The notes beneath the pieces are model-generated. The model made no database searches. It was not told the origin of the DNA and saw only the letters and a program-made list of their open reading frames with translations. A stretch of DNA of 59,442 nucleotides, from positions 1 to 59,442 of the forward strand of contig JBJCIZ010000448.1 of the NCBI GenBank assembly GCA_051294375.1, given 5' to 3'. This document shows, one piece after another, positions 15,376-59,442 of the stretch (the stretch's first letter is position 1; the number at the start of each line of letters is the position of its first letter). A program made the position numbers and the translations under genes. This DNA is from Paraspadella gotoi. Lineage: Eukaryota > Animalia > Chaetognatha.

Positions 15376-18300
15376 TCAAGAGTTCTCCGAACGTGATAAA
15401 ACGTTTTTCAGATACAGAGGATAAGTGAAAAAAAATCTATCATCGTTATCGGAATTTTGGTACAATCGTTTGGATGTGAACCGAGTAAGAAGTTTTTTAT
15501 ACTCCTTAACAATGTAAATACGTTGATTCCTTCTCCTTATTCCATGTTGGGCGACTTTCCTGGTTGGTTCGTTGGTGCTCACGGCTTTTTCATAATCGTC
15601 GATGGTGATATTATTTAAAAATACATTTCTCTTGACTCCCTTAGATTTCGCTACAGACAATTTCCCGTTTGCATTCCCGCTCGGTCGATTGCAAGGAAAG
15701 TTGGGAAGATTGGGATAGGTGTGGATCGAATACTGCTTAACGGAAGTCGCAAAAACCGTCTAAATACAGATTAATCTTATTGTTATCGTTACTGCAATTA
15801 CTTTATATTATAGCTCGATGATATTAAACTAACCTTGACCATTTTTGTACTAAGCTCGTCTTTGTAAAGTCCAGAGTTATTCTTTGTCGACTGAGCGAGA
15901 AATTTTAACATAACTTGAAGTTCCTTTTTCGCCAAGCATTGATACACGAAGGAATCCTAAACAATAAACGACAAAACCGACAATAATGTTAATATCATTA
16001 AAATAAAATCGATAAAGCAATACCTCGTTCAAACAGGAAAAATCCAATAAGGGAGTGAAAGTTTGAAGATAAATGTTGGACCAAATACTTCCGGTGAGGC
16101 TTTGGGTCAGGGCGATGTTCCTATCTGAATGTGTTAGTTCGAGTAATTCATTTCTCTCGTTTTCGGACTTCTTCCGGATGAAGCTGTAGAGAAGGCTGTC
16201 GGTATCTTGAAATAGTAACATTAAAGACTTAATTATTTCAGGGACAAAAATTGTTGCAAAGGGCAAGATGTTGCGTCGCAGCGAGTGACTACGTATATCT
16301 TAAAAAAAGTTAACCAAGNNNNNNNNNNTTAATCAAGCTTGACGGTCTCAATCCATATTTTATTAAAGATAATTTTTATATTAGTATATTTAATTTACGG
16401 ATTTTAAACGGTCACGTGACCAGGTCACGTGACTGGGTAGGTACATGCAAAAAGAGCTGCTCCGTCGACACTCGAGTCGCGATCGAAATAATATGTATCA
16501 TATNNNNNNNNNNATATCAACTTATAAATTTATATATTCTTATATACCTGTGACCATAAGTCGAGAATTAATGTTGCCGATTTTGGCGATATTGGCAACA
16601 AAAGTGAAATTCGAACGCCATAAATACAACTTAGAATTTGAATAAATTTTTGATGAGAGGTAAGGAGCGTTACGTTCCTTTATACTTAATCCGTCTTTAA
16701 GTATGACCACGGCATTTTCGCTTATTTTGCGGAAATCAAAAAAATGGACGTTATCAACTTCCTTAAAAAATTTCTCTTTTCCTATACAGATGGAGGAGTT
16801 AAGGTATTTAGATCTTTGTTCGTGCATTTTTCCATTTATTGTATTAGACAGGGCCTTTATAGCTTTACCCAAAATATTAGATTTCACTTTCGATCTCTGA
16901 TCCTGAAGGTACTGAATGTAATCGCTCAAATATCGATATGAATTAAAACGGACGATTTTAAGCACTTTCGTGATTCTCATTCCGTGGAAAATACACGAGT
17001 ACAAAAGATTCTCCACAAAATCGGAAATTTGGGTGGGTTGGGTGTGAATTGTTGAAATCAACTTCGCTGGTTCCTTATCAATCCGACGACCTAGCTTTGC
17101 AGCTGAGTCGATTTGATCGGGATGCAATTCGAAAGATCTCACCTTCCTGTTGATTGGCAGGAGGCACAGATCAAGATTAACGTCACTCGCCTCGTCCATG
17201 TCCGTCTGCGTTTCGATTACAAACAAATAGCCGACGTTGTTTACTGTTAGCTCTTGATTAAAGAATTCGACTTCGGAACTAAGCAGTTTCTCGCTCAACA
17301 TATGAAAGGTTTCAGGGTGGGTAGCTTTTTGAAGTATTTCAAATCCACTGTGCGGGAGGAAGCCATTCATCGAGAACGGATAGAGACCTTACAAGCAGAG
17401 AAATACTAANNNNNNNNNNAAAAAAACAGATTTCCTTTGTAAAAGAGGATGTTTTTAGGGAGATTTCTTGACCTACCGTTGGCGTCGATGTAGGAGGAAG
17501 TCGTTAACTCCTCCTCTTCATCAAATTTGTATCTTCCGAGAAAGGAAAAAATGGCAGCGAAACCACCCAACTAAAATGACAGATTAATCATAATTAGACT
17601 TAACATGTATATATATATAACTATATGTAGAAATAATTAAAATAAACATACCAGATTACTTTGAAAAATTTGATAAGTTTCAGAATCAAGCATCTCCAGT
17701 TGCAGTCTTTTCTCCGGTTCTCTTGGATCTTTCGCGTGGTACAAAACAGACGTAAGCGCAAGACTCGAAATAGTCTACAGAATGAAGGGATACTGATTGT
17801 ACAAACGATACCATGGACAAAAGTAAAACTTAACCATTTTTTGCTGCAGTACCATTTACCAAGAAATGTGCTGGATAAAAGCCCACGACCTCATGTAATT
17901 TTTCAAAGAGGAATTTCATTGTATCCGCGAGGTTTAAGGAATCCCAGATATTATAAAAAAAAATTACGTTGAACAAATTTTTAGCGTTTAATCCGTGCCA
18001 GACCAATTTGAAGATGTCATAGTCCTCCTGAGAAATCTCACTTTTTCCGCTTAATTCCGAGTAAAAATCCTCTATAGGCGGAACTTGTTTAATATTTTCC
18101 ATTGCTTCGAAACTGCTCAGTAGTTTGAACGGCATCACAACTTTTTGACGGATCAAGAATTCAAAAAACGAATCTGTAAAGTCGCAATCTTTAATAAATT
18201 CGTAAGTGGAAGAAAACATCTCCGCGAGAGACTTCTCGTCGTTGTTGCAGGCCGTTGTGTAACAATCCTTGATGATATAACTGAGTGGGTGAGAGATCAA

Positions 18301-20853
18301 CAAAAAACTGTCCGCGATAACTATGTACCTATCCGAAAAGCACTTAAGAGGGAAACCGTGAATTCTCGCAAATTCTTGTCGCTCATCCTTTGAACGAGAA
18401 CACTTTGGACACATTGAAGGAAGATGACAAGAAAATTTAAATCGAATCGACAGAGGAGTGTTCTCGTTTCCGCTAAAAAGCACCTTCGGAGCCTCCCTAA
18501 TTATAGGTTTGAAGACCGGATTCCCCAACACGTCGTGTGACACGTTGGTGCAGTGCGTTGCGGCCTCGATAAGACTTTGCAGTAAGAAAATCCATCGTAG
18601 TGACTAGAATAGTGACAAAAAATAGTATGGTTGATTTTATGCGGTAAAAAATCCACAAGATTCAAGTTGCAACCTGCACAAGTCAAAAATCTCATTTCTT
18701 TTTTCCCTGTGTAGACGTGGGAGTGGTCCAAAGTTTTTTTTAAAGTATAAACCCTACCCGTATACTTATTCTTAGATTTAGTTTGGAATTTTTTTCCACA
18801 CAAATCACAAAAGCTCTGTAGATTATATTTAATTCTTTCCTCTAAAGTTAATTCGTGCAGTTTGGGTATTCCTTTATCTGCTTTATAGACTTTCTGAATA
18901 TATTGGTGTAACTTCCACGCATCGTCCCTGAGTCCTAAAAGAAGTTGAATGAAAAAATCTCTCTCGGTTTGTATTCTCTCATCCAAAAATTTACATCGGG
19001 GTTTTCTTAATTCCTTCGGTAAGGGAAAGTCCTTCTCATAGAGTCCCTTATGTACCAAGCTATAAGACAGCACCTTTTGCTCACTGACGGCGCTATTGGG
19101 AGGGGGGGGGGTGTTGACTGAAACACGTGCGTTTTCGCTGCGATCGATTGGAACGGTGACAGCCTCAAAATCCATGCAGGAAAAAAATAAAGGTTTAATT
19201 TTTTTGTAGAGCATCCCCCTTTCAAACCGAAGAACATTTTTTTCAAGCTCGCCAGTCCACGGATTTTCTACATGGGTCACGTGTACTGTCTTATTTGAAG
19301 CCTCTCGTCGTCCCAGTCCCGACGAGAATGCTTGACATATCTCAATATGATCGGAATAAGTTCTTTCGTTAGCGAACAAAGTAACACACTTGCGGCATAC
19401 ATATCTGAATCTATTTGAATTAAATTTTTTTTCGATGTTTGATTGAAACGATAGCAAAAGCCTGGCCAAGTTAGAAATAAACAGTATATGATCCGTTTCG
19501 TTGTGTTTTAAGTTAAAATTTTTTTCGGGGGGATTCTCTCTGATGCAGGGAGTGTCCGCCAACAAGTCGATTTGATGATAGTTATCGTCGTTATGGTGCG
19601 AGCTCAATGCGATTGGAAAGATCGAATAGGCTTTAAAATTAAGTGCCTTGCGGATTTTAAAAAGATTAAGAGATATCCCCTCAAAAAACGTTAATTCGGG
19701 GTAAAATTTAATTAAAGAATCCGGTATCGGAGAATTTAGTTTTTCAAGCTTCGAGAAATCATTAACGTTTAACCCATCGTCGTCGATATTTATCAAGTTG
19801 CCTGTTTCAATCGCCGAGACAACCTCTTTGGCGTATTTCTTAGGAATACGTGTTAAGGTTTTAGTGCCAAATTTGTTTTCGAGGCTAAGCATTACCCCGT
19901 ACAGAACACATAATTTCGTTCCTTCATTGACCAAAACATAGTTATCCGTATCAAAGACATTCCTCATGAAAGCAGACCGCAATTCGGATTTAAAAATTTT
20001 TTCTTCGTTCAAAGCCCCGTATCTTATCAAATTATTCGTAGAAGGAACGGCGACATGTCGAACGTGCAGTGTGTTGATGTACAAATATGTCCACCCCGAC
20101 TCACGCAAGTCCGACATATAGTGCACGTGCGAAACCAAAAAATTAGTAAAAGAATGCAAGAGGTTTGATATGAAGACTTCCTTGTCTTGGAGCCCTTCCA
20201 TGATAAAATGCTGATTTCTATACGATATCCATTGCGAGATTCTATCGTTCAAGTCGGAGGCTCTCCCGAATTCGACCTCTTTGCGAAAGAAAGAAAAAAA
20301 AGAGAAAAAAAAATGTCAGTTAAATAGATAGAAAGGAAAATAGATAGAAAAAAGAAAGAAAGAAAGAATGAAAGAAAGAAAAAGTAAGAAAAATTAAACA
20401 TATATTATAATATTATTATTATTATCATTATTATTATTATCATCGTCTTTATTATTATCATCATTATTATTATCGTCGTTACTGTCTATGACTAATTTAT
20501 TACACACCTGCAGCGATCCAGACCAGGTAACGGAGAGGATGTTGTTGAGCGTCTCTTGGGGATAGGAGTTGCCTCAAATAAGCTTGAGCGTGTAATAAGT
20601 AGCATCTCAATTCGGTTTCAAGAAGCAGTCTCTTACTACCCTCTAATCGCCAATCTCTCGTCATCACTCGTTTACTAGAAGCTCCCGTAAAGAGGTCACT
20701 GGTTGTATAACTATAGATTCTCAAAGTATTCTCGTTTATTTCCTCCAAGATAGGAGAATTTAAAAGTTCGTTTATCAGTTCATTTTCATCGTCTGANNNN
20801 NNNNNNTCGTTTTGATAGTTTTCCATACTCGATTTTTTAAAAGTTACTGACAT
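15376..20853 (-). CDS. polB: Protein-primed family B DNA polymerase (pPolB), 8 exons, ~1,530 aa
   Basis: Exons 20853(or ATG 20826)-20508, 20278-17860, 17774-17652, 17570-17477, 17387-16548, 16298-16024, 15956-15834, 15759-15376; all GT-AG introns restore frame. Motifs: N-terminal ESGW, C2HC finger, ExoI CMDFEA, EndoVII-like CDLC..DHSH..CAGCNL, ExoII HYSSHYDG, ExoIII YNIWD, PolA YIDANG|LYP, PolB KALSNTINGK, PolC QDTDS, GLYKDE, KSKGVK. One 1-nt frameshift in a T-run near 18590 (probably a sequencing error). Confidence 0.96.
16410..16434. promoter_or_regulatory. Tandem palindromic E-boxes GGTCACGTGACC / GGTCACGTGACT in polB intron 5
   Basis: Two adjacent GTCACGTGAC (USF/MiT-TFE-type) motifs in an otherwise AT-rich intron 16299-16547; minus-strand TATAAAA at 16380-16374. 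Confidence 0.5.
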
Positions 20854-23491: not shown

Positions 23492-23616
23492 GTCTTTTAG
23501 TTGTTTTTTTAAAAAAACTACAGCAAAACAAAAAACAATTTCTATTTCTGAGGAAAATATTTTCTGACACTTTGAATAACATTTGTTGAATAATACTAAA
23601 TCCAAGCAAAATCAAG

Positions 23617-29191: not shown

Positions 29192-29379
29192 CCTTCGTTC
29201 TTTTTCCATCCGGAGTAGGAAGACGCGTCCTGGGGAGAGGAGGAGGAGAGGAGAGTGAGTGGTGGGTAGGGGGTAAGCGAAAAGTAAGGGGAGGGGGAGG
29301 GGAGATGGAAAATAAAGGAAAAAGGTAAATAGAGGGGGAAGGAAACGAAGAGGGGGGGGGAAGTAGTTTGAGTCTAACC

Positions 29380-29576
29380 CGCCGCAGCCCGCCGCGCCCG
29401 CCGCAGCCCGCCGCGCGCCGGCGCCCGCGGCCGCCGACGCGGCGCCGCGCCCGCGCGCGCCCCGCCGCCGCGCGCCGCCGCCGCCTGCGGCCGCGGCCGC
29501 CGGCGGGCGGAGCACCCCCGCCCCCCGGCGGGCACCGCCCGCGCGCCGGCGGCGGCGGGGGGGGGGGGGGGGGGCT
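29380..29576. other. ~200-bp almost pure G+C island between the divergent gene blocks, flanked by (CT)n and (GA)n tracts
   Basis: CCGCCGCAGCCCGCCGCGCC... ending in a long G run; (CT)n at ~29053-29190 and (GA)n at ~29650-29682. Confidence 0.6.
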
Positions 29577-29737: not shown

Positions 29738-31835
29738 ATGATGTCAGGTTCTATGTAGCTGTTAGAAGTATATTAGCGGTAGTATCGAGATCATTTATTC
29801 TGTTGTGTCACGACGCGAGTGGGAAATCGTATCTGAGCTTTGCCGCCGTAATATGCGACTTGTTGAATCGTGTTCTCATCTTTATGCTGCGTCGGCCGAT
29901 TGAAGTTATCTGGTTTGCTCGATCGCGCCGTATTACAGTTGTCGAGTCGAGTCTCGGCGACGCAGACCCGACTTCAGGAGGCCTAGAAGACGTGGAAGGT
30001 AGAGAGTAGGCGGATGAAGGAAGGAGCGAGAGAGCGGAGGAGACGGCTCGAGGTGAATTCGAACGATGACGGACGTGAATGCGAGGACATGTACGGGAGA
30101 AACATTAGCTCTGTGGCGTATCATCTCTTCATAATGAGCGTTCTTGCGAAGAAGGGAAGACAGCAGGGAGTAAGATTTTCAAACGATATTCTGGGATGCT
30201 GGCGGTCGTGCGACGTACCTGGCGTACCGGGAAGTATTTTCGGTTACGCTGACATTCAGCATTTCGACTGGTGTATTATAATTAACTTATTTAGCGACAG
30301 TTAGAGACCTTGATAGATCGATCTTTAATATAACGGATCTGTCAGAGGAGGATATGGAACGTGACGAACGGAGAGAAGCAGCTGAGAATGTGTGTCGCCT
30401 AAGAGGGAGTCATACCGAGATGACGAATGCATGCCTGGTTTCCTAAATGACGATGTACAGCTCAACACTAATCAGTATTAACAGATTATTCAAATGAGAG
30501 AGGGGACCACGAAGAAGGACCCGAGACAGACTACCATCCTACTCTCGGAAGGACGAAAAGCGACAAACGCGAGAGGGAATCTGGAAAGCGAAGTCGTTTC
30601 CGAGGACGAGGACGTTTCGACGCGTCAACTCGAGAACGACAGAAAAACGACGTCTCTATTTTAACAAAAGTTTCGCTCCCGACGAGGCTGTCAAGAGAAT
30701 GCTGAGGTTAGAAGATCCTCCCTTGAGAAGACTGCGCTATCTCGCCCTATCGAAGAGGGGGAGGAGGAAGGAGGGAGATACTCGCGACGACGGACCAACA
30801 ACCACCGCTAAATCGAGATCGAGATCGAACAAGAAGGGAGGGGCTTATAATTTACGAAGCTCTAGTTCTAGATTAAGAGAAACAGGAAGGACGACCGACG
30901 AACACGACAAAAAGTAGCGACAATAACGGTAACAACAACAAAAAACGAAACGGAGCGGGGACGTGGGTGACAGCGTGACGACGGGTAAAGACGTCGAGGA
31001 AGAACGTATAAACTAACGACGAGGGGGTGACAGGGCGACAATGACGCGGAGGGAGGTTAACAAACCCACCCCCTCATCTTCCGACGGACGTGAGAGAGAA
31101 GAAAGGGAAAGGGGAGATGTCGAACTCAAGCGCAACTGCATCATCGTTTTCGACGATGCCTTTGTCATCAACTCGTCTCTGTCATCTCGCGGTGACAAAG
31201 GAGAGAGCGGCGTCGTCAATACAAAACGTCTTACGGAGTTTTATGTGAATTTTTTTAGTCAGATTAGTCATCATTTAAATTTTAATAGTATAACTATTTC
31301 GCAATCGGCGTCCTCGTCCTCGAAGGGCGGTTCCGGTCTTTTGAATTCGGCGCTCAAAAGAATAAAGATAGACCAACACGGGTATGTTTTATACGGCAGT
31401 TTGGCGAGCGAGTCGAGGTTCCTTTTGAGTTCGCTTGCGAGCGGCGAGAAGTACGCCTCTTTGAAAGCCGTCTTCAACAACGCTACGCAGAATGTAGAGA
31501 CGGAACCTGGATTGTTTCGTCACAAGCTTCCCTATCTCGTCTTCGCGACTAACAACTCCACGCTGGATTCTTTGAAATATAGGTACATTTATTTGTTTTG
31601 TTTTTTTTGTTGTCTCTCTCTCTCTCTCTCTCAATATATATATATTTTGTTCTTTCAACCTTAAACGTGATTAATTTAACCTCCTCTTCCTTTTCCTCCT
31701 CTTCCTCTCTCTTCTCTCTCTCCTCTCTCTCTCTCTGTCTTGTCAAGAACGAATCTCTTTAACTTGGATCGGGAAAATTCTTCGTTTCCTTTTCTCCCGC
31801 AAACGGTGCTCTCGTATACTCACGACCTTGATTGA
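29738..31835 (+). CDS. A32/FtsK-like DNA packaging ATPase (5' half error-ridden, long insert between Walker A and B)
   Basis: Walker A-like FIL..ASGKSYL (~29790-29835), Walker B CIIVFDDA, Polinton ATPase motif FSQISHHLNFNSITISQ, and C-terminal LPYLVF...KYR|TNLF joined by intron 31583-31747. Confidence 0.82.
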
Positions 31836-35387: not shown

Positions 35388-36760
35388 ATGATTTCAGAGC
35401 GGAATTTGGAAAGACTGAAACTTATTAAGTCTGATTTGCAAAAAACTTCGCAGAAAAAAAAACCCAGCTCGTTAATCTCACCCTCGCCCTATGTCTACAG
35501 GTAATCTCTCTCTCTCTCTCTCTCTAAAGAGCAAATAACTCGGATCGTTTATTTATTTGTTTCTCAGGCACTTTATTATCAACGAATTTGACTTTCTTCA
35601 TATAGACGTTACTTCTGAGACTATTGGACGAACAAAATAAAAACCGTCTTCGCAACAGGATCGACAGCAGGACAGTACGGCAGAGCAGGACTTACCGATG
35701 GATGATAACGCGACGTCCATCAAAGAATAAAATGAAAGAACATCTTTTTGATGAGACCGACAAGACCGATTACGACGAGCACAGACATGATCGTAAGGAC
35801 AAAAAAGGAGGATTATTGACGGGTAACCGACAAAGAAAGGCGACTGACAGCGATGAAAATCTCTTCACGACACTATCGACTCGATATTACACAACAAGGA
35901 TTTTTCGATGCGCGACAAGTCAGAGCTGTATAAGAGGCGAAATTAAAAATGGCAGAATCGTATGATTTTTTATAAAAAAAAAAGTCTGTACTCCACCTTC
36001 GACAAGTCTCTCTCTTTCGGCGGGCGAAGAGGGAGAAAAGATCCTCCCCCAATCTCGATAACCCGCCGAGAAGACGAGGGTGATCGTCAACAGTCGTCTC
36101 TCAACCGACTCGTAGTGCAAACCGCAGCGGTTTCAGCAGCAGCGATTCCGACAGCAGCGAATGCAGCTCCGATCTGTTACGGGTATAACGACGAAACTAA
36201 CGACGAAGACGACGAGACTCGACCAACAATGACAACGAGGAACGACGGGAAGTGGGCGAAAGTGGAGAGGTGGAAATGAGCGATGCCTCGAACGTTGAGA
36301 CCTCCTCTCGCCCAAATAGGAAAAAAAAATTTCAGTAATTATCGCAGGTGTTAATTTGATTCAGGTGAGGTTAGTTTATTTATGTCATGTCAAACAACCG
36401 ACTAGTACAAATTTAACTTCTACTTGTTTTGATTTAATCGTCAGGGCTTTAAATGTAATCGGAGAGACTCGACGGGACTACAAAAAGAAACATTAAACAA
36501 ACAGCTAAACTTCTCCAAAACACATGATTCGAATCTTCGCGACACAAGGATTGAACTAAAAGGAACTACTTGATTATGTTTAAAAAATGGGAGAAAGAAA
36601 TGTTTCGGATGTCGTTGGAGAAGGCTAGCCTGTTTAACTCTTACAAGATCACAAATATATAAATTTTTGTATTTTTCTAGTTTAAACGGCAAATTGAACG
36701 TTTTAAAGGTAGCGAGAAAGATTTGTTGACAAAACTTTGTCAAAATCGAACATAAAACCT
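35388..36760 (+). CDS. Hypothetical spliced coding region; may be a long N-terminal extension of the integrase
   Basis: ATG 35388 after an acceptor at 35359; intron CAG|GTAATC...TCTCAG at 35501-35567; charged low-complexity ORFs 35624-36279. Confidence 0.35.
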
Positions 36761-36771
36761 AAAAATATCCC

Positions 36772-38765
36772 ATGCCGAGCGATTCGCGTTATATGCAGAA
36801 AAAAATGACATTTTCTATTTTGTATTATAGTTTTTTTTCTTTTGTAATTTTCGCCATGCTCTATCAAGGGGAAGAGAAAAGATTTAAATCCTTTATCGTC
36901 TATATAGAACGTTTAATTCGCCGTTGTCTCCAGAGAATCAACCCAGAAAACGAAAACGCTAAGAAATATAAAGACTTGAAAAGTGACTGTTCGCGAATAA
37001 TTGGATTTAAAATGGAGAGTCTGAGTCGACTGCAGAACGTCACGAACGAGAATTAGAGGAAAACGAACTTATTCTTTTCGTAAATATGTGACATTTTGTT
37101 CCTTTCACACAATCGCCGGAGATCTAGGTATAATCGATTAAATATATTTTTTTATTTTTTTTTTTTACCTTTTAAAATTTTTTCAGCTTTTACCTCAATT
37201 ACGGGATCACAACAAGAATCACACTGTAATCTTGGTATTGCTCGATTTGAATAGTCGGTTCTGTAGTCTTCTCGACTCAGAAAGGGCAAAGGCTTCGGGA
37301 CCCTAAAGAACTTTGAAAAGGCATTACGAACCGATTTATAGCTTCAAGACCCTAAGAAATCATTCAAGTATTCTAACGAATACAGCTGTACTCTGCAATT
37401 AATTTTTTTGGTTTGTTTTATGAAAGCAATTTCTATATTTACTGATAGTTGTCGATATTTATGTCTTAAGAGGGAATAAACCATATTTTTCTCTCAGTGA
37501 AGGCTATGAACTTGTTTAGGAGGATCTGCCTCCTTTAAATTAAAAATATAATAAAAAATTCAAAAAGAACAAATTAATAACACTGGTATCACCTTACCTC
37601 TATACTCATTCACAATCAATATCATCGTAAATAAGAAGCAAATCTCAGAAAGTATGAATATGACACATAATTAAAATGGAACTTAATTACCGTGGGAAAG
37701 TGCCATATTCCGTACGTACCATGTAGACCCTATATATTAGATTTATATTTTATGTGGCTTTCCAATTTAGAATAGTTATCTCTCGCAAAAGTCAATGCTA
37801 TATGATATTATTTCATTGTTACCAGGATACAGTTGGTCCCAAATTCAAGAGCAATCTTCAATTATTCGCATAGACCCACGATTTAATCAACAGCAGTAAT
37901 ACCTGACGTGTAATATGAATTATCAGCAATTTAACTTTAATTAGATGGAATGAGATGACTTTCTCAATTGTATTTAAAACACGCACAAACCACAGTTGCT
38001 TACATATGTATCGGGATCCTTGGTGCAGATGGCCTATACTCCTTTGGCCTTACAATCCGATTAAGAGATTTCTCTCGGTTCGGATTCACTCCCGTAGTAA
38101 ATTTCCTTAAATCTAATAAACTCTTAATTTATAGAAATTCGTAACAAATGATGCTCAGGAAAGCCGTTGTTTCCCTTTTAAACAAAAAAGCCGGGGAAAC
38201 TTGGGACAGTTTCGAGGACATTCAACGGAAGGCGAAAAATATTTTTTCCAAGATCCCTACTACTGAAATTTTAAAGGAAGGTGATCTCGTGCTCCTAATT
38301 CTTCCGGTTAAGAAATTTCGAAAGGAAGCTTCTGTTTTCTATCCTCGCTTTTCCAAAAAAATTTTCACTATCGAATCAGTCGACAGAACCTATTTCCCCA
38401 GAAGATATAAACTTAAAGAGTTTGACGATTCGAAAAGAAAGTTTTACGACTTTGAATTGAACAAAGTCCGTCCGATACAATCATCATCCGCGGATCGTCT
38501 GAGCACGACCGCCTCGGACGAGATATCCCCCAACCAGTCGGTATCGGTTAAGGACGTTGAAGTTCTGTCTGATCAATCCGTGTCGCTTAGATCCGGACGA
38601 GTTTTGCCAGGTCGCGAGAGGGTTATTTATACTGTACAGAGAGAAGGAAGGGAGGAGAGAGTCTTCCCTCAAGTGTTAAAGAAATATGTTAAGGTTTTAG
38701 GGAAAAACGTTTTGAAATATAGCGACGTTTTTAAAACCCCTGAAAAGCGAAAGTACATAATATAA
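36772..38765 (+). CDS. int: Retroviral-like (rve/DDE) Polinton integrase; centre (~37340-38050) degraded or poorly sequenced
   Basis: RTYSFRKYVTFCSFHTIAGDL|..LPQLRDHNKNHTVILVLLDLNSRF (first catalytic Asp; intron 37128-37186), YN..GFTP, and the typical C-terminal EGDLVLL..KKFRKE..PRFSKKIFTIESV..RRYKLKE..KFYDFELNKV. Confidence 0.88.
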
Positions 38766-38785
38766 TATAGATTTTAACATTTAAC

Positions 38786-40336
38786 ATGAGTCTTTTCACT
38801 CTTTATCTTTCAAATAAAAAAATTGAGGAAGAACACCAAGGGACAATGTCTACTACGAGTGACTTCTATATAGATTTAACACAGCAGATTGATCTTAACC
38901 AAACAATTCTACCTTTTAAAAGTCCTTTATCTGAAATGAGCATGAACACGTTTCAAATTACAGGGGTTCCTCTTTCTTTCACAAATGAAAATAAAATTTT
39001 TGTTTCTTTAATAATACCAACGGATATAACCAATGTCAATCAGAATTATGGGATTGAGGAAGTATCAACCAGTAACAATACTTATATGTGCATTACCCTG
39101 GACGATCTGACGATGGCGAGATCCAAAGAGGCTATAACATTTATTAACGAAATCTTGAATAATCATTTAAAAACCTACATAATTTTGAAATTCGCTTCTA
39201 TTATTTCGGATTTTAATCTAATTAATATAAACGCTCTGCAATTCAGCAAACATGACGCTAAACCAGTTCTTTCAAGCGACGATTATAAAATACTAAAGTG
39301 GTATCTTGATTGTAGTGTTTATTTCAGAAAAATAATGCACCAGTCGTTTAACACTTACCTACGTGAAGACCTCGAAGATGAGGTTGACTGGATCTACGAC
39401 ACCTCAATTTCGGCGAATGATGAAGCTAAACTGGTCAATAATAGTAAATATTTAACCCCGATGACTGATAGGAAACAGGTTATACAGAAACTGATCGATT
39501 GCAATAAACTACACGAGAGAGACTTATCGCAGCAACATAAAGATATAAAAGATGCCGCAACCGGGGAAATAGAAAGTTGGCTGCAAGATTTACAAGCTTT
39601 ACAAATCGACGAGGAATCGCAAAAACTTACCGAACAAAGTATTGATTCCTTGAAGAAGTTGAGAAAAGACAATATGCAAGTACTGAAGCTATCAACTATT
39701 ATTTTAAAAAATATTAAACCGGCAGCTCAAAGNNNNNNNNNNGAAATTGTGCAACTGGAACTTAATGAGAGGAAAAACAAATGTCGATTCACCTCTAAAT
39801 TTGATAAATTCATGCAAATCGAATATAAAATTGCACTGAGCATTCATTTTAACAATAAAACCTCGCAACTCCTTGGAGCGGAAAGAGGTAAAGATTTAGT
39901 ATTCACCGTNNNNNNNNNNNNNNNNNNNNNNAGCGGCTCTAAAGCGAAAAGGAAGAGAATAAAGGAAGAATATCACAGAATAGGGGTTGACGAACTACTA
40001 CCGTTCGAAGTGATCCCTTTTCCAAGAACCTTACACTTTTTATCTGACTTAACCATAAATCAATGCAGCTATGATGATTCTCGACTGAACGATACTAACT
40101 TTGCAAATCTGAATGTCTTTCACTCGCAGACTATCACGAACAACAATCTTCGTGAATTTTTCGTCTGTAAAAACGATAACGAACTTGCTTTTCACAGAGT
40201 AAAACAAGGGAAAACGATTTTTGGCGGATTCCGAATATTAATCTTGGATGAATATTTCAACCAAGTTTACTTTCCAAAAAAAACATTTATTTACTTTGGC
40301 ATTTCTTTTCGACCAGTATCGTTGAACGATATCTGA
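38786..40336 (+). CDS. Minor capsid protein (penton, single jelly-roll) with large internal insertion
   Basis: N-terminal FTLYLSN...TTSDFYIDLTQQIDL and C-terminal TLHFLSDL...LAFHRV...FRILILDEYFNQVYF...FGISFRP resemble Polinton penton strands; lies between integrase and MCP. Confidence 0.8.
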   Translation: MSLFTLYLSNKKIEEEHQGTMSTTSDFYIDLTQQIDLNQTILPFKSPLSEMSMNTFQITGVPLSFTNENKIFVSLIIPTDITNVNQNYGIEEVSTSNNTYMCITLDDLTMARSKEAITFINEILNNHLKTYIILKFASIISDFNLININALQFSKHDAKPVLSSDDYKILKWYLDCSVYFRKIMHQSFNTYLREDLEDEVDWIYDTSISANDEAKLVNNSKYLTPMTDRKQVIQKLIDCNKLHERDLSQQHKDIKDAATGEIESWLQDLQALQIDEESQKLTEQSIDSLKKLRKDNMQVLKLSTIILKNIKPAAQXXXXEIVQLELNERKNKCRFTSKFDKFMQIEYKIALSIHFNNKTSQLLGAERGKDLVFTXXXXXXXXSGSKAKRKRIKEEYHRIGVDELLPFEVIPFPRTLHFLSDLTINQCSYDDSRLNDTNFANLNVFHSQTITNNNLREFFVCKNDNELAFHRVKQGKTIFGGFRILILDEYFNQVYFPKKTFIYFGISFRPVSLNDI

Positions 40337-40372
40337 ATCATATTTTAATTTGTTCTTTAATCAATATAGATC

Positions 40373-40687
40373 ATGAGCTGGTATAATTCAGCTCATCAAC
40401 AGAACTCTGGTTTTGACGCCAGCATCGCCAGACTCCTCATTCCTTACTTTGAGACGTCGACCGATCAACAAAGTAGCAACACACAGGAAATCAAGGGAAC
40501 CTCAAATCGACAGAAAACTATTACGGCGGATCAAAAACAACGCTCCCCTCCAGAGAGGAACAACGACGCCGGCCGCAAAGAAAAAAGAAAAAGAAAGGCG
40601 ACCATCGAAAAGACCGTAGAAACCGAAAAGGAATCGAATCGAGTCAAACAGAAAAAACAGCGAGTTAACTCTCGTAATTTCATTTGA
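40373..40687 (+). CDS. Small basic putative virion core/DNA-binding protein
   Basis: 104 aa: QQNSGFDASIARLLIPYF followed by a K/R-rich tail; sits between penton and MCP. Confidence 0.55.
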   Translation: MSWYNSAHQQNSGFDASIARLLIPYFETSTDQQSSNTQEIKGTSNRQKTITADQKQRSPPERNNDAGRKEKRKRKATIEKTVETEKESNRVKQKKQRVNSRNFI

Positions 40688-40722
40688 CCGAGGACCGGGT
40701 AAAAAAAAACAAAAAAAACAAA

Positions 40723-41803
40723 ATGGCGGAAGGGATACGATTCGGGGACGCGCCCCTTTCTCGGATCACGCCTGTGGTTACACCGCAAATTGATTCACTC
40801 TTGAATAACAAAGTTTACCTCGAAGACGGGTGTCTCTTTAACGGTATGAGATAAAAAATCCGTTATTCGAATGTTATCCACACATGTCATACTAAGTACT
40901 TAATTTTTTTTCCTCATTAGGTTATGTAAGAATAAACCCAGGTAAATAGATGTGAAATAAAAATCCTTATAGTCGTTTTTCTTCAGTTTTACACCTTTGT
41001 TAATTCTCTCACCCCCTTTACCAATAAGAGGACACGACCGAACTTTCAAAAGGTGAAAACATTTTCTATTTTAGGGTGAATTTTGTCTATCATTTCATCA
41101 CAACGTATTCTTTCAATTTTTAACTTTAGGAGGGCGAGCCATAAGTTTTAGATTCAACGAGAAAACGGCATTTTTGAATCCACATCGCTTTTTTCTGGAC
41201 ATCGAGATTGTCGCTACTAAAGAAGACGGAAGCGCGTTGACAACTTTTGACGTGTCGACTCTCCCTCTGATGGGTCAGGGGATCCTGGACAGCGTTTCTT
41301 TGAACATAGGATCTTCGCAATTGGTTAAGGTATTAATTGAAACGAATGATTTCTTTTTTCAATGATATTTAAAAATATAACGATTGTTTTAGTACGACAC
41401 GAATTACGGGATCATAGCTCGCCTGAACTACATAACTAAATACAGCCTTGCGGCTCGACAAACTTTTCTTCGAGAGTTCGAATATTATATCGAAGACCAG
41501 AACGACGTCGGCAGCACCGACGTTTCAACTTTCTTCGAATCGAAAACCATTGGCGGGGTCTCGAAAAAAGTACCCAAAGGCGAAAATGGCAAACGAACCG
41601 TTTTGCTGCTCGACAAAAATCCGATTAAATTTCGTTTGTCCTTCTTCTCTCCCCTCTCCACGATGAATTGCCTCTTACCCAACAACCTGGACATAACACT
41701 TCAGTTTTACCTAACTAGTCGTGAGTCTTTAAGTTTGTCAAAAAGACGAAAAAAAAAAAAAACAAAAAAGACATAGAACGATTCTTAATCTCGTCTCTCT
41801 CCG

Positions 41804-41834
<31 letters not shown>

Positions 41835-42768
41835 GGAGAGATACTTTATCACACAGACCGCCGGATTAAAACCGAAATTCTCTGTCAAATGTAATCTAAT
41901 TTTTATTTTTATTGGTAACTTATGACGATTAATCAATAATTCCTTATTACTTTTTAAGCTTGCTGTTTGTATGCCAACGTCATTCTACTGCGTCAGAACC
42001 TCCTGGAGAAAATCGAGAGTGCTTTGATCGCCCGCCCGATCCAAGTCAATTACAATGTGAGAAATACCTAATCATTAAAAATATATAATTATTTGATTTG
42101 ATACTTATTGGTTATTTTTAAGGCCACATTCGCCAAAGTTTACTCATTGGAAACAGGAATTACAAACAAATTTATTACCTTGACGTTAAAGAATAGCTTT
42201 TCCTTCGCCGTTGTCCTACTTCATAAAAACACGGTCCACAACGGTACGCTAGCGTCATCGATCCAAGTATTTGGAAGGGAAAAATTGGCACGTGCATTTC
42301 TCGAAGTAGGGATTAGTTCCAAGATCCCCTCCCTCCCCCTCGGAAATTCGGGTAAGAAAACAATTAAATAAACCGGTATGATCAAATAAAAGTATAATTT
42401 TTTACTCAGGCGACGTGGACGGTTACTCTTTCGTCAACGAGTGGGCGAGGAAAGCATCGTACCAACACGTCTGCGATACATTCAACTTTTTGACGGAAAA
42501 AGGAACTGAGGACTTCACTTTACAGGACTTTCTTAATACACGGTTTATGTTACCCTTCAAACTGTCTCCCTCCGTGAACAATATCAATCTAGACGACGCG
42601 CAGTCGCTACAGTCGACAATAAATCCAGGAAATCAATATCGTTTATACTTAGAGTTTGAGGAGCCTTTAACTCATGTTTTAAACGTAACGGTGGTTTTCA
42701 CGCAAGCTCGATCATTATTAATAAAATCTAACAGGTTGGTCTTCCAATCTGTTGACGTCGAGCAGTAA
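40723..42768 (+). CDS. Double-jelly-roll major capsid protein, 9 exons, 478 aa, intact
   Basis: Exons 40723-40843, 40921-40941, 41029-41052, 41130-41329, 41393-41720, 41834-41890, 41959-42056, 42123-42351, 42410-42768 total 1437 nt with no stops. Motifs AISFRF..FLNPHRFFLDIEIVATKEDGS, NYGIIARLNYITKYS, LLPNNLDITLQF, FMLPFKLSP, YRLYLEFEEPL match the Polinton MCP pattern. Confidence 0.93.
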
Positions 42769-42808: not shown

Positions 42809-43354
42809 ATGGATTTTACAGAAAATAATCTTGTCACTTCGGACAGTGACTTGAAAAAAATTTTGAAGAAAGACAAATTGAGTTATAATACTATTTTGAA
42901 AGGAAAACTTATTCTTTCTTACGACGAAATGCATAACANNNNNNNNNNTAGAATAAAAAAACATAAAATTGCTATAATAATAAATACTTTATCTACTAAA
43001 GAAGCAGAGTTCGATAAAATCGGTCATTGGTTAATATTATGCGTTTATCTTGTAAATAATGTTGCTGTAATTATTGATCCGTTGGAGAGGCTGGAAGAGG
43101 ATTTTCCGCACGTTAATAGAATAATAATCAATTTTTGTTCAAAAAATTTGTTTTCATTAAAAAGATTGCGCCTGAAATCGCAACATGATAAATCAAAAGC
43201 CTGCGGTTTGCAGATTTTATTCTATTTGAGAATGTTTTCTCATAATAATAATACAAATTATCTTTTTAAACTAAAAACGCTATTGCTAAAATATTCATTA
43301 GCAACAATCGAAAATTTTGTCATAAAATCTGTAATTAAAATGTTTCATTTGTGA
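42809..43354 (+). CDS. Adenain-like (clan CE) capsid maturation cysteine protease
   Basis: IIINT...IGHWLILCV...IIDPLE...SQHDKSKACG: His, Asp, Gln, Cys in adenovirus-protease order; directly after MCP. Confidence 0.9.
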   Translation: MDFTENNLVTSDSDLKKILKKDKLSYNTILKGKLILSYDEMHNXXXXRIKKHKIAIIINTLSTKEAEFDKIGHWLILCVYLVNNVAVIIDPLERLEEDFPHVNRIIINFCSKNLFSLKRLRLKSQHDKSKACGLQILFYLRMFSHNNNTNYLFKLKTLLLKYSLATIENFVIKSVIKMFHL

Positions 43355-43812: not shown

Positions 43813-43945
43813 GATTAGGGTGGGGTAGGGTTAGGGTTAAGGAGGTTAGGATTAGGAACAGTTAAGGTTAAGGACGGTTAAAGGTTAGGGATAGTTAGGA
43901 TTAGGGTTAGTTAGGATTAGGGGTAGTTAGGATTAGGAGTAGTTA
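43813..43945 (+). repeat. Degenerate telomere-like (TTAGG/TTAGGG) tract with G-quadruplex motif
   Basis: GATTAGGGTGGGGTAGGGTTAGGGTTAAGGAGGTTAGGATTAGG...GTTAGGATTAGG; four G3 runs at 43818-43836. Confidence 0.8.
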
Positions 43946-44281: not shown

Positions 44282-46624
44282 ATGAGTCACACCGACCGTT
44301 ATGTATTATTAATATTTGTTACTACAATTCATGCCTTGGAATATTTAATATACACTCAAGTTTGAAATTCATTTTTTTCTACAAATCTATTTCTTATTTT
44401 TGACGATGATAATGATAAGAAGCCCACCCAAACGAGTTTTTAAAAATTAGCTTAATGACTTAATTATTTCGAAAAAAGATTTACTTTACCACATCTGTTC
44501 GCTTGTTGCAAAAATCCTTGAAAAGAAAAAAAAAAACTGGAGTGGAAACACAATGACACTTGAAAAATCATTAATAGAAAGAAAAAAATTAGATAACTTG
44601 AGTGAGAAAGGACAAATTAATTGCGGAGTTTTGGCTCATGAAGTTTTAAAATTTTATTCCGGTCCAGCTTCTTTAAACGAAAACGAATAGTAGTACAACC
44701 CGTAGTGGGAGTAAAATCACGTATTGAAAAGATAAGGGTTTTCTTTTTTTTTTAAAAAAAGGGGGGGGGAAAGCATAGCCATTGTTACATGAACACAAAT
44801 ACTAAAACAATAAAAAGACTCTCATCTTAAGCATTGAATTCAAAAAATGGAATTGTTTAAACAAAACTGCATTAAAGTCGCGAGAGTAAAGTGTCATTTT
44901 ACAATTATCAAAAGTTTTCAAATTGTAACTCAAGGACGTTAAAAACGATTGCTTTTTAAATCATTTGAACCCTTCTCCCTCGGACTCTAGTTTAAAATCA
45001 TCAGAAGTCGATTTTAACACTTCGAGAATCCTAAATACACACTCTCCGCTTAATGACCAGACAGAAATTTTTTTACTCGCGATGACCGCAAGATATTCTC
45101 CCCACCTTAAACTCTCCAGAACTAGTTCACCGCTCTTTTTCCAAAAACCTCTTCGTCGATGATACACAGAGATGTTTCTTCATCGATTTCATCACACACT
45201 CTCTCCACCCTTACCAGTCTCCAACAAGAATCGAATCAACATTCACGAAACTGTTCACCCCTCGTTTCTCTCCAACGACAACGAACGCGACGGAATTTAC
45301 CAACGATAGTACGACGGTTAAAGGACCGTTCCCCTTTCGTTTTTCTCCGACGAGGAAACCGCGATGAAAGGGCAATGGGACAGTCACCAGACCATCCAAG
45401 CCTCTTCGTTCCTCTCCGACCGTGGAAAGCACGACGAACAACGCAAATGTCGCAGCACGTGTGTCAGTTTGTTCCTGTTCATTCTGCTCTCCTCACTGAC
45501 CGTTGCAATAATTCCTCCAAAAAAATTCGTCGTCGATCGGTACGTTTGTTAATTCATTGCTTTTAAGACAAAATACAAACCACGTAACAGTTTTTTTTGT
45601 TTTTTTTCAGCTAAGCGAGAGAATCCTGGATTGGAGAAGACGACGTTTATGTAACGAGATCAGGAGACGACAAGAAATACAACTTCGACAAATTCCGTTC
45701 ACAGTCGAAAATCCGGCTTCTATTTCTCTTCCGAATCAAGATAATCCTGCAACTCCGAGCGAGGAAAACGCGAACTCAGTCACGTCGTTTTCTTCCCCGT
45801 CTCATGGTAATTTTTCCTCTCTCTCTCGCTAACTCGCTCGACTCAATCAGGTTCTTACTAAATCACTCACACACTTCTCAATCACTCTCGCTCAATCACT
45901 CCTCAATCACTCACTCACTCGATCACTCTCTGCTCGATCTCCCTTCACTCAATCACTAGCTCAATCACTCTCTCCTCTCTCTCTCTCTCTTTACTTTTAT
46001 ACAATAACCAAACTCAATAACTTAATGTGTTATTATTTTATTGTATACTATACCATTTTTGTTCAGCTCCTCCCGCTCTTCTCCAGAACTTAGCACGGTA
46101 TGAAAACGACTACGAGGAAATCTCAAATTTGGAGGTGGGACGGTTTCGTCGAATCGATAAGGCGAGAAATGACTTTAATTAATTAACGAATCACTTTTAT
46201 TAATTATTTGAAATATGTTACAGTTTGTCTCAAATGCACAAGAACCTGCTTGTACCAGAACAGGGAGACGAAAACTATTTAAACCTGTCAGGTGAAACAA
46301 ATCAAATTCATATTTCTTTTATTAAAACATCTCAAAAAGACTAAAACTTTCTTTGTTTATTTTCTGCTACAGTTTGTTCAAATGCACAAAACCCGCTGTG
46401 TTCAGAAACAGGGAACGAAAACTATTTAGAAACTGTCAGGTGAATGCAAATAAATTCATAACTTTTTTATTAAAAACATCTCAAAAAGACTAAAACTGTT
46501 TCTTATTTTATTTCTGCTAGCTCGGTTCACACGAAAACTCTGACGTTCAACTTCCATTGGCCTCCAAAGCGAAAACAAAACAAAAAATAAACTTTTCTTG
46601 GTTTTAAGCGGGAAGATGATTTAA
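44282..46624 (+). CDS. Putative type-I membrane glycoprotein: signal peptide, Cys-containing ectodomain, S/T-rich stalk, TM helix, Tyr/Pro-motif cytoplasmic tail (multi-exon, frameshifted)
   Basis: MSHTDRYVLLIFVTTIHA; S/T-rich stalk ~44965-45440; TM SLFLFILLSSLTVAII followed by a basic stretch; intron 45540-45610; tail exons encoding DEN(D/N)YEEI, EQGDENYLEPV, ENYLETV and VQLPLPPKRKK...KMI*. Consensus taken from both copies. Confidence 0.62.
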
Positions 46625-46879
46625 GCCAAAATAATCATGTCTTCCAATTTTTTTCTTTGTAATTTAAAAATCCTCGAAAAAAAAAAATTAGAATTACTTA
46701 CTACTTATTTCACAAAAATCCGTCTTAAACTTAGATTTGAATGCGTAATTCGACGCTGCGACTCTGTAACTAGCACCAAAAATCACTTCAACAAAAAACT
46801 ATAGCGCGACGGCAGCGCATTCAGTTCCCTATTTTTCTTTCGAAGTCTATAGAACTTTTCGTCCGAAAACTTAGAACCC

Positions 46880-49800
46880 GATTTAACTACTGTGCCAATT
46901 GAGACGATCTTCGTGCTTTCCTATGAAAAAACTTTTTGAAAGGCCTCCCTCTCTCTCGCTCTGAAGCAAACAACGAAAATTGTCTGCAATTGCGCCGTTT
47001 AAAATTGGCGGTCTTCCGTGGCTCTGCTCTTTTTTTCTCTCTCGGTTTTTTCTTGAGACTCTGCTCTTTGAGATCTCGCAGCGTCGCTGCTCGGAGGAGA
47101 CCCTCATTTTAAAACGCGCCAATTCAGACAAATTTCGTTTTTCCTCTAGAGAGAGAGAGAGAGTCAGAGTCGAACCTCTGAATGCCTGATTCGCAGCTCC
47201 AGCGACTCTGTCTCTTTTTCTCTCTCTGTTTTTTTGAGACTCTGTTCTCTTTCGAGGATCTCGAGCGTTCCTCGCTCGAAGAGAGCCTATTTAAATTGCG
47301 CCAAGTTCAGACCAAATTTCGTTTTTTCGCTCAGATGAGAGAGAGAGCAGAGTCGAGTCGAACCTTCGTAATGTTGCTGCTCCGCGCGAACTCTTCGTAT
47401 TTTTTCGACTTCTGGGAAACCAAAAATTTTGCGAGCGCGACTCGACAGAGTCCTCAAAGAGATCAGAGGAGAGAGCGACAGCAGTCTCGTCAAGAGACAG
47501 AGATGAGAGCTGAGGATCTATGTAAACAATGAAATTGGTAAATCTTTGTATATAATTAGTCCATCTTTGTAATTTTTTTTGTCTTTTGTCTAATTTATTT
47601 TACATTTTCTTTTAAAATGTGTACATACATATATTGCTACACGCGCTCATCTATACTTACTTGCATTGTCTACTGTTCTAAATTTCTCACATCTCTGTAC
47701 ATTAATAAATCATATCCAAACTCAAAAATCTCTCTCTCTCTCTCTCTCGTCTCCTGATGGACATAATCGCAAAATTGTGCTGAATCTGGCGGCACCATTT
47801 TAAATCGATCTCGTCCTATGCAGAAAAACTTTTTAAAGTACCTCTCTGCTCTCTTGCTCTGATGTGAACAAAATCGCAAAATGAACTCTGTCTTCTCTCT
47901 CCGTTTCTCTGAGACTCTGGTCTCTCAGAGATTCGAGTTGTTCTCTCGGCTCGGCGGCTAGGAGGGACGGAATTTTCAAAATAGTGTCCAATGCAGACAA
48001 TTCTCTGCTGCAGGATATTAACGAATTTTGTTCTGAATTGGCACATTTAAAATGGGGTCTCCTTCGAGCCGTCCTGGCCAGAGAGATGAAAAAAAAGACA
48101 GAGTCCAATCTCAAAGAGACAGAGCTCTCAAAAAAAACAGAGAGAGAAAAAGAGACGAGTCGCTGAGCTTCTAATCGTAGCATTCGCAGCTGTTCGACTC
48201 TGACTCTCTCTCTCTCACTGCAGGAAAAACGCAAAATTTGTCTTGAATTGGGCGCCGTTTTAAATACGGCACGCTCGAATCTCAAAGAGACTGAGTCTTC
48301 CAAAAAAGAGAGAGAAAAGAGACATGATCGCGGAGCTTCGAAGATCGCGCATTCTCGAGGCTTCGACTCTACTTTCTCTCTCTCTAAAAAACGAAAATTT
48401 GTCTGAATATCGCGCGTTTTTAAATCAGGGTCGTCCTCGAGCAGGAGCTCGAAAATCGGTGACGATGTTTCGAAGAGACAGAGGATGAGGAGAGAGTCTC
48501 AAAACAGCAGAGAGAAAAAGAGACAGACAGTCGCGGAGCTCGAATCTCTCTCTGTCTCTTATAAGACCTCTCTCGCGCTCACACAACTTTTTTTGTTTCC
48601 CGAAGTCGAAAAATCAGAGTCTCGAAGAGACACGAGAGAGACGAGAGAGACACGAAGTTCGAACCTCGAATGTTGGTCCGCCGGCAACAGGACGCTTCGG
48701 AATCCTCAAAGAGACAGTAGTCTCCAAAAAAACAAGATGAAGAAAAAGACGGATCAGAGTCGCTGGAACTCTTCATATTTTTTTGACTTACGGTTGAAAC
48801 TCAAAATTTTGTGAGCGCGAGGACAGAGTCTCAAAGAGACAGAGAAGAGAGCTCGAATCGAGACAGGTAGGTCTCGAAATCTCTCTCTTTTTTNNNNNNN
48901 NNNNNNNNNNNNNNNNNNTCCACCCTTACCAGTCTCCAACAAGAATCGAATCAACATTCATCGAACTGTCACCCCCCGTGCGCTAACGAACACGAACTCC
49001 GACGCAATAAACCATCGATAGTACGACTTGTTAAAGCGACCGTTCCCCTTTCGTTTTTCTCCGACGACGGAAACCGCGATGAAAGGCAATGGGACAGTCA
49101 CCAGACCATCCCGAGCCTCTTCGTCCTCTCCGACCCGTGGAAAGCACGACGACAACGCAATAGTCGCAGCCACTGTTCGATCAGTTTGTTCCTGTTCATT
49201 CTGCTCTCCTCACTGACCGTTGCAATAATTCCTTCAAAAACAATTCTCGTCGGATCGGTACGTTTGTTAATTCATCGCTTTAAGACAAAATACAAAACCA
49301 ATCGTACACATTTTTTTTTTTTGCAGCTAAGCGAGAGAATCCTGGATTGGAGAAGACGAACGTTATTGTAAATCGAGATCAGGAGACTGACCAAGAAATA
49401 CAAACTTCGACAAATTCCCGTTCAACGCTTCGATAAATCCGTTCTATTTTCTCCCGAATCAACTATACTCCTACAATCATCCGAGCGAGGAAAACACGAA
49501 CTCGTCACGTCGTTTATCTTCCCCGCTCATGTATTTTTCTCTCTCTCTCGCTAACTCGCTCACTCAATCAAGTTACTTACTACAATCACTCACACACTCT
49601 CAATCACTCTCACTCAATCACTCCCTCAATCACTCAACTCACCTCGATTCACTCTCGCTAGCGATCCCTCACTCAATCACTAGCTCAATCACTCTCTCTC
49701 TCTCGCTCTCTCTCTCTCTCTTTACTTTTATAAATAACCAAACTCGAAACTTAATGTGTTATTATTGTTATTACTATACCATTTTTTTTCAGCTCCTCCC

Positions 49801-58500: not shown

Positions 58501-59442
58501 TGTTATCGTATTGTGGAAATGATCGGTTCTGCCGCGTGTAGTTTAACGTTTTAATCACTTGTTTACGTTAATAAAGTCGTTTATCGGTGTTTTTTTATAT
58601 TTTTGTTACATTGCGAAAAACGTTTGCCGTTTTTTTTAAAAGTTTTTATTTTCTTTTTACATTTGAAAAAATGCGTTTTCTGTTATTTTATAGTTTTTTC
58701 ATATCTGTTTTTACAGAAGAAGAAAGTCGTTGTGTCTGGTGTATTTTAACGGTTCTTTATCTTTTTGAAGAGTGAGAGAAAGCTTACATTAAAATTAAAG
58801 AGGAAAAGAGAGAGAGAAGGAGACATAAAATAAAAGAGAGGAAATTTGTGTGTTTTGATAAAAAGATATTTTATTAACTGGTGCCTCACCCAATTTGTAA
58901 ACAACCTCGATGATGTTTATTTTGCAAAGTATTTTAACGTTGTTATTTCTTTTTTCTTGTTGAAAATATCGTTTTCCGGTTTGTTTAGAAATTTTTATTC
59001 TCTGTTTGACATTGGAAAAAGCCCGTTTTTCTTTGGTTTTTAAAGTTGTTTATCTTCTTTGGAAATGTCGTCCTTCTGCCGGGTATTTAACGTTTTTATT
59101 ATTTTTACTTTAGAAAAGTCGTTGTATCGGGTTTTTTTAACTCTTTGTACATTGGAAAAAACGTTTGCCGTTTTTTTTTTAAAGTTTTTATTTCTTTTTA
59201 CATTGGAAAAAACGTGTTTCTGTTATTTTAAAGTTTTCATATCTTTTCTACAGAGAAAAAGTCGTTTTCTGGTGTATTTAACCGTTTTTTATTATTGAGA
59301 GTGAGAGAAAAGCTACATAAAAATTAAAGAGAAAAGAGAGAGAGAAGAGACATAAAAATAAAAGAGAAGGAAATTGTGTTTTTTTGATAAAAAGCATATT
59401 TAATAAAACTGTCCTCCACCCAATTTTAACAACCTCCGATGA
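52502..59442. repeat. Host AT-rich tandem satellite, ~13 units of ~515-550 bp, each with ~7 diverged ~45-50 bp subrepeats plus a purine-rich segment
   Basis: Anchor GAGAAAGCTACATAAAATTAAAGAG recurs at ~52748, 53263, 53811, 54356, 55540, 56081, 56628, 57171, 57695, 58232, 58776, 59304. Subrepeat TTTTTACATTGGAAAAA.CGTTT...TTTAA. Confidence 0.95.

Follow-up and report, generated by a model that had tools for sequence, protein, structure and literature searches.

Here, we found that the gene of the major capsid protein (MCP) in a large Polinton/Maverick-type element is divided into nine exons, among them two micro-exons of 21 and 24 nt, and that it is open along its whole length when read exon by exon. 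The gene lies at 40723-42768 of the window, by which we mean the whole 59,442-nt stretch of Paraspadella gotoi DNA analysed. The nine-exon model was confirmed as real and correct at the level of the sequence, from which we also infer that its eight introns are spliced. We consider it likely that the host carries out this splicing, that the product is a double-jelly-roll (DJR) protein with a predicted length of 478 aa, and that the introns go back to old gains across much of the element.

The exons (Table 1) add up to 1437 nt, i.e. 478 codons without a stop. The introns measure 77, 87, 77, 63, 113, 68, 66 and 58 nt, all eight begin with GT and end with AG, and the GC content of each (0.18-0.36, versus 0.33-0.50 for the exons) lies below, or near, that of the adjoining exons. 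If retained, every intron would bring one to four in-frame stops into the message; the exons hold no internal stop, and none of the codons split at the junctions is a stop. The intron phases are 1, 1, 1, 0, 1, 1, 0 and 1 in order (six of phase 1, two of phase 0). Besides the GT-AG ends and the phase-correct removal, a pyrimidine-rich 3' end matches U2-type spliceosomal introns, and branch-site-like motifs were found in only four of the eight. The 113-nt intron ahead of exon 6 contains a poly-A run and a CT microsatellite. The first-pass annotation had already proposed eight phase-consistent GT-AG introns of 58-113 nt that join into 1437 nt (478 aa) without a stop, and we reproduced these values; its nine-exon gene with 21- and 24-nt micro-exons and an intact frame was likewise borne out by the exon model, the relatives and the ranking of parses described below. 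Three exons are symmetric, with lengths in multiples of three, namely exon 2 (21 nt), exon 3 (24 nt) and exon 6 (57 nt). An open frame alone does not demand them; it is homology that does.

Table 1. Coordinates of the MCP exons and of the other genes and candidate genes of the element in the window
Feature	Position	Strand	Remarks
MCP exon 1	40723..40843	+	121 nt, with start codon; aligned to relatives P0005, P0007, P0009, P0012 and P0028
MCP micro-exon 2	40921..40941	+	21 nt; in the P0028 model, latter half of the first strand of the jelly roll
MCP micro-exon 3	41029..41052	+	24 nt; in the P0028 model, loop and short helix that follow the first strand; weak acceptor
MCP exon 4	41130..41329	+	exon model; canonical profile; part of the query that found the relatives
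MCP exon 5	41393..41720	+	exon model; part of the query that found the relatives
MCP exon 6	41834..41890	+	57 nt; exon model and relatives
MCP exon 7	41959..42056	+	end of the first jelly roll; exon model and relatives
MCP exon 8	42123..42351	+	found in the window by the relatives' profile, E 3e-10
MCP exon 9	42410..42768	+	with stop codon; highest-scoring segment with the canonical profile
Probable RVE integrase (catalytic part, C-terminus)	37187..38765	+	two collinear profile matches, E 0.07 and 0.01; error-rich stretch
Penton-like ORF	38786..40336	+	516 aa, uninterrupted; position as in loci L004, L018 and L019; profile match not significant
PW-position ORF	40373..40687	+	104 aa; between minor and major capsid genes (order per PMC8097293); no profile match
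Cysteine-protease-like ORF	42809..43354	+	181 aa, uninterrupted; Peptidase_C48 E 0.07 (weak)
Protein-primed DNA polymerase B (pPolB)	15376..20201	-	E 5e-11 with a profile of pPolB ORFs; seven exons in the polymerase part
pPolB introns 1-6	17859-17775, 17651-17571, 17476-17388, 16547-16206, 16023-15957, 15833-15760	-	GT-AG; 85, 81, 89, 342, 67 and 74 nt
Candidate packaging ATPase, C-terminal part	31041..31664	+	E 0.66 against a single partial reference (weak)

A splice parser trained on the polymerase introns and other ORFs only, with no MCP sequence, returned eight introns in the MCP, six of them identical to those of the earlier model. Both micro-exons received posteriors of 0.93-1.0 over four penalty settings, the laxest of which adds a ninth intron, and the score on the MCP was 176, compared with at most 54 in block shuffles (n=24, of which 21 were parsable). 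Since on control strands, too, this parser calls an excess of introns (51 and 80), we count its result as support for the MCP introns and not as proof, and for that reason its intron counts elsewhere in the element were left unused. The parser departs from the earlier model at intron 5 and at the donor of intron 7, and the relatives decide both cases for the earlier model. The alternative intron 5 and the donors 41324 and 42045 were tried and not preferred overall; donor 42045, in exon 7, fits the relatives less well, yet has a small advantage with both the distant profile and the parser. In the parser, the acceptor site of micro-exon 3 ranks 42 of 87, and several splice sites have weak scores. 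A census of intron-like segments was dropped as a test, as gene strands and control strands could not be told apart by it.

Do related proteins call for the micro-exons? An exhaustive search with exons 4-5 only found 28 relatives of 29-43% identity, which align over seven of the eight MCP junctions, mostly gap-free. The exact length across junctions 1-7 is kept in 4/5, 6/6, 4/6, 12/14, 6/7, 4/4 and 2/3 of the relatives that span them, respectively; junction 8 is spanned by none of the close relatives and draws its support from the canonical profile introduced below. The micro-exons were judged on the seven of the 28 relatives that include the N-terminus, all of which had been found without the micro-exons. 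Between exon 1 and exon 4 there are 205 possible parses, 16 of them open, and the earlier parse with two micro-exons ranks first among the open ones with a score of 1008 (next 920; skipping both 772). It is the best parse in six of the seven relatives, and P0005 aligns gap-free across both micro-exons. Random peptides of the same length scored as well in 1/2000 cases for micro-exon 2 and in 0/2000 for micro-exon 3. The distant canonical MCPs alone do not resolve the micro-exons, with 11.3 for skipping both and 11.2 for the full sequence. Skipping of a micro-exon, which preserves the frame, would likely damage the modelled fold by cutting the first strand or the loop after it.

A Maverick motif matched 21 loci; nine served as canonical, intronless MCP references, while three short, duplicate or frameshifted MCPs and nine chance matches were left out. 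Against the profile of these nine MCPs, the exons (with X at each junction) aligned in one piece over positions 49-439 of 444, with 17.6 bits and E 8e-8 as a single comparison, and within-exon shuffles (n=300) reached at best 11.2 bits versus 19.3 for the whole sequence. In the other direction, five canonical MCP ORFs were matched by a profile of the relatives with the window excluded (E 8e-9 to 6e-6), and 13 of the 28 relatives were matched by the canonical profile at E <0.01. In a midpoint-rooted tree of 26 rows, from which eight relatives with fewer than 90 aligned residues were omitted, a split with support of 100/100 separates the window MCP and 20 relatives from five canonical MCPs; as relatives and canonical MCPs were collected by different means, the tree shows distance and no tested clade.

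The predicted fold of relative P0028, which is 25% identical, agrees with these profiles. The prediction, whose alignment included canonical MCP rows, is confident for the first domain and unreliable for residues 293-395, and it covers the first jelly roll only. When this domain was compared with 48,161 chains, the top 13 matches were all DJR capsid or scaffold proteins, the best one with Z 13.8 and an rmsd of 3.4 over 188 residues, and Foldseek agreed. The capsids of PBCV-1, EhV-201, ASFV, faustovirus and mavirus and the poxvirus scaffold were matched at Z 11-13.8. Exon 9 gave a weak lead of its own, grouping at a low recognition score with ESM clusters in which 10-22% of the members belong to DJR-like or NCLDV capsid families; its single-sequence fold (pLDDT 39) was unusable. 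Pfam returned no MCP match for the exons and their neighbours and likewise scored nothing on the canonical MCPs, and word-seeded protein searches, PDB sequence searches and scans of viral contigs gave no useful MCP match. The metagenome locus L001 was rejected as an MCP match, being a chance match on a trypsin-like locus. Taken together, sequence profiles and the first-domain fold of P0028 place the gene with the DJR major capsid proteins of Polintons/Mavericks, and the earlier assignment to the Polinton/Maverick type, at a size that is normal for a major capsid gene, is supported by the Maverick profiles and the relatives. The gene would work like a Polinton/Maverick capsid gene, and its membership in this group is likely.

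On the plus strand, five ORFs follow one another in the order integrase, 516-aa ORF, 104-aa ORF, MCP and protease-like ORF. This is the order of the Maverick integrase, minor capsid, PW, major capsid and protease module, also found at L004, L018 and L019, with assignments that are partly weak. The 516-aa penton-like ORF had no significant profile match and no usable match in an atlas search, and in the protease-like ORF the His and Cys motifs align to Maverick proteases at E 0.1, within a weak range of E 0.07-2.4 over all tests. The candidate ATPase ORF contains what we take to be a Walker-B-like motif. Loci L002, L003, L004, L018 and L019, which lie in bacterial genome bins, carry Maverick capsid modules of the canonical intronless kind; several come from animal-associated samples, and they are probably misbinned host DNA.

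The minus-strand arm carries pPolB, whose six-intron exon model is phase-consistent and stop-free. Joining its exons across the first three junctions improved the match to the profile from 39 to 53 bits; the remaining three junctions are based on phase and on the order of the motifs. Two of the introns lie inside catalytic motifs, presumably the polymerase motifs A and C. One frame break was seen in pPolB near 18.6 kb. On the same strand, at 23491-21290, three accessory genes start with a motif that looks similar by eye and seem to be intron-split, possibly as a small paralogous family; the one at 23491-22733 has three stop-free exons with boundaries suggested by the parser. An uninterrupted 869-aa ORF at 23649-26258 (minus strand) has several Cys/His clusters, a lysine-rich tail and no Pfam match. 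A gene model at 15.2-14.0 kb contained stops and was dropped. The leftward and rightward gene arms are separated by a very GC-rich stretch at 29350-29570, a candidate divergent promoter or origin.

Is intron gain a property of the capsid gene alone? The first-pass annotation had taken it to be gene-specific, given a penton and a protease neighbour that are intronless. The two neighbours are indeed unbroken. Three N runs fall into these two ORFs, and since all 6/6 N runs that could be checked against an inverted copy in the window came within 2 nt of the true size, introns hidden in the penton-like and protease ORFs are probably to be discounted. The six introns of pPolB, however, mean that intron gain is not gene-specific. 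In addition, the two integrase matches, which are the best two of 1528 segments in the profile search, occupy 1006 nt, compared with 423 nt required by the profile, and the integrase is probably intron-split, too. The MCP is the most intron-dense core gene tested, with 5.6 introns per kb versus 1.5 in pPolB and 0 in the three small neighbours within the capsid module, and introns are element-wide but uneven. A distribution by chance over the core genes tested would give the MCP 2.5 introns where eight are seen (P about 0.001, post hoc).

This excess, together with the weak acceptor before micro-exon 3 and the enrichment of introns in morphogenesis genes of mirusviruses, as described in the accessible part of PMC12768974, is what could be cited for a regulatory role of the introns in boosting or gating the late expression of the capsid, e.g. 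by regulated inclusion of micro-exons. The annotation had suggested such a role, and nothing that we found supports it: the penton-like, PW-like and protease genes have no introns, two of these being late genes as well, whereas the polymerase, a replication gene, has six. Skipping either micro-exon keeps the frame and would yield a damaged protein instead of a decay switch, and from one relative to another the positions of introns seem to change. We therefore regard a regulatory function as quite unlikely and favour introns that would be removed constitutively.

How old are the introns? Among the 14 introns of MCP and pPolB, compared within this window only, no family likeness was found; the best local matches were 11-28 nt long and the repeats at intron junctions 0-3 nt. 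Introners are marked by sequence similarity among the introns and by repeats at their termini or junctions, and introns so unlike each other, with junction repeats so short, do not show that pattern. In several relatives, the similar stretch has its start or its end at junction 2, 4, 5 or 6: P0008 starts at junction 2, three relatives stop at junction 6, and P0027 carries a 31-residue insertion at junction 5, where seven others stop. P0028 has 28 extra residues near junction 7, and six of the 28 stop at residue 224-225, a place where the window MCP has no intron. Many of the relatives are fragmentary and run out into low-complexity tails, as would be expected of an ORF caller running into an intron. 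These positions were read from protein ends and insertions only, and some of the relatives may be spliced gene models; they suggest that the relatives share old introns, with turnover. Break positions of which some appear to be shared, in combination with introns that are mutually unrelated, favour old gains over a recent burst.

A recent burst of introners would have a precedent in dinoflagellate Maverick-like elements, from which introners are reported in the available text of 10.1101/2025.03.18.643946. Alternatively, the gaps between the exons could have come from insertions during decay of the copy, or from artefacts of sequencing, and merely happen to look like introns to a parser, as the window does contain raw long-read stretches and a fold-back duplicate. 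Either account would have to produce eight GT-AG, AT-rich segments of similar length that are phase-exact relative to the relatives, between exons free of stops and frameshifts, and the dissimilarity of the introns compared within this window and their 0-3 nt junction repeats speak against introners in particular. We hold both to be highly improbable, and old spliceosomal introns remain the reading that we follow.

Parts of the window are of limited sequence quality. The stretch 1036-11420 is an inverted copy of 13849-23658 with 84% identity, 725 gaps and no long ORFs; it looks like a fold-back long-read artefact and was used only for checking the sizes of N runs. The integrase region is full of indels, and a contig of sequencing run X1 shows 37 gaps relative to 35700-36655. 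On the basis of the fold-back copy and these gaps, the window is in part a raw long read, in which error and decay are indistinguishable. Run X1, for which RNA is no more than a guess, has 0.81 of the words, while a spliced transcript could have at most 0.63, and it thus carries intron sequence and may be the source sample; its contigs on 35700-41735 (filtered records) leave the MCP uncovered and hence say nothing on splicing, and none of the four joints near 35.8-37 kb is GT-AG. Beyond the capsid module, 45204-47008 and 48919-50708 form a direct duplicate with 88% identity, many indels and internal 142-150-nt repeats, which may be real or an assembly artefact. At 52500-59442 lies an AT-rich tandem array (unit ~540 nt, 50-54-nt sub-repeats, copies 77-87% alike), probably a host satellite or one noisy read of it. 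No TIRs or element ends, which in Polintons include end motifs and a 6-bp target-site duplication, were found; 43.3-52.6 kb gave only microsatellite matches to the left half, and the left end lies inside the fold-back region. Degenerate TTAGG-type repeats at 43830-43945, just 3' of the capsid module, could be part of the terminal region of the element.

The intact frame of the MCP had been read as a sign of recent activity or of selection for virion production. Selection or youth is in line with what we found, while production of virions is not backed by an element with a break in pPolB and no recognisable ends. A second copy of the integrase in run X1 (window 38283-38420), ~89% alike, differs at eight synonymous and two non-synonymous codons among those listed, and such mostly silent differences point to selection on the family. 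They also bear on the idea that the capsid gene or the whole element was domesticated or immobilised, gained its introns as a resident host locus and forms no particles now. Genes that have long been resident in a host typically carry many introns, and the intron load of the element would fit such a fate, as would the frame break in pPolB, the TIRs that were not found and the satellite DNA next to the element; against it, the viral gene order is complete, the integrase copies differ mostly at silent sites, the relatives are a diverse family with apparently shared introns, and the frame breaks sit in a window with clear long-read errors. We consider domestication unlikely.

For an element that still encodes its capsid, we propose the following course of events. 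The genes of the element would be transcribed in the nucleus by host RNA polymerase II, and the major spliceosome of the host would remove the short introns by intron definition. In intron definition, short introns are recognised as units, which permits tiny exons between them; the 21- and 24-nt exons would be kept in this way between their 77-87-nt introns. Inclusion of the micro-exons would be constitutive, because skipping keeps the frame but would cut into the first capsid strand and the following loop. Introns may have been gained and lost slowly and neutrally over a long nuclear history, with selection acting only on the spliced protein. The introns would then be tolerated passengers and the micro-exons by-products of closely spaced gains.

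The core genes of vertebrate and nematode Mavericks are described as lacking introns, which occur only in nematode cargo genes (accessible parts of PMC8097293 and 10.1101/2022.07.12.499685). Gene models with apparent introns were scored as decay in PMC8097293, and a large protist survey assumed endogenous viruses to be intronless and used a prokaryotic gene caller (PMC10120064, as far as its available text goes). For cryptophyte PLVs, the available part of PMC12220804 reports group I introns. A term look-up for introns in Polinton core genes gave none in the accessible text of PMC8502044, 10.1101/2023.08.22.554363, PMC11296320, 10.1101/2024.01.08.574619, 10.64898/2026.10.13.758929, PMC4405056 and PMC6431247, and in the main texts of the literature searched we found no published description of a multi-intron Maverick MCP. 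Surveys that assume intronless Maverick core genes would likely miss a lineage such as this one or discard it as fossils, and an open MCP with eight introns, together with 28 mostly fragmentary relatives, suggests that such an overlooked lineage exists. We speculate, with more doubt than confidence, that it is a distinct and diverse lineage of nuclear polintoviruses whose MCP introns predate divergence to ~30% identity, which still makes particles from an mRNA that depends on micro-exons, and which was hidden by gene calling on unbroken ORFs. Capsid expression would then be tied to the host nucleus and spliceosome, and a dated set of intron gains in an otherwise intronless gene family would be useful for studying the origin of introns and the birth of micro-exons.

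How does the element compare with known systems, as far as these are covered by the accessible parts of the cited papers? It shares the pPolB, a probable RVE integrase, the gene order and a homologous MCP with animal Polintons/Mavericks (PMC8097293, 10.1101/2022.07.12.499685, PMC4405056), and its two arms point away from each other as in the cane toad elements. It differs from them in size (~30 kb versus 13-25 kb) and in its core genes, which are described as intronless in animal Polintons and here contain eight introns in the MCP and at least six in pPolB, so that it falls outside the vertebrate-type definition of an 'intact' Maverick with intronless core ORFs (PMC8097293). Dinoflagellate Maverick/Polinton-like elements (10.1101/2025.03.18.643946) likewise have spliceosomal-type introns and have kept their capsid genes; their introners, however, are young, multi-copy and mostly acquired after integration, whereas the introns described here are mutually unrelated and some of their positions are apparently common to distant relatives. 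Mirusviruses (PMC12768974) also contain short GT-AG introns of about 80 nt, of which the major capsid gene has many (4-22 in one family), with intron turnover among relatives, as is apparently the case here, and their introns were taken as a sign of nuclear replication. Yet mirusviruses belong to another realm, with an HK97-type capsid, giant genomes and homing endonucleases in the introns, for which introns of 58-113 nt are too short. A DJR capsid gene in many exons is also known from faustovirus, the MCP of which has 13 exons (PMC6247863), although that gene extends over 17 kb, contains group I and non-canonical introns and belongs to a giant virus of amoebae.
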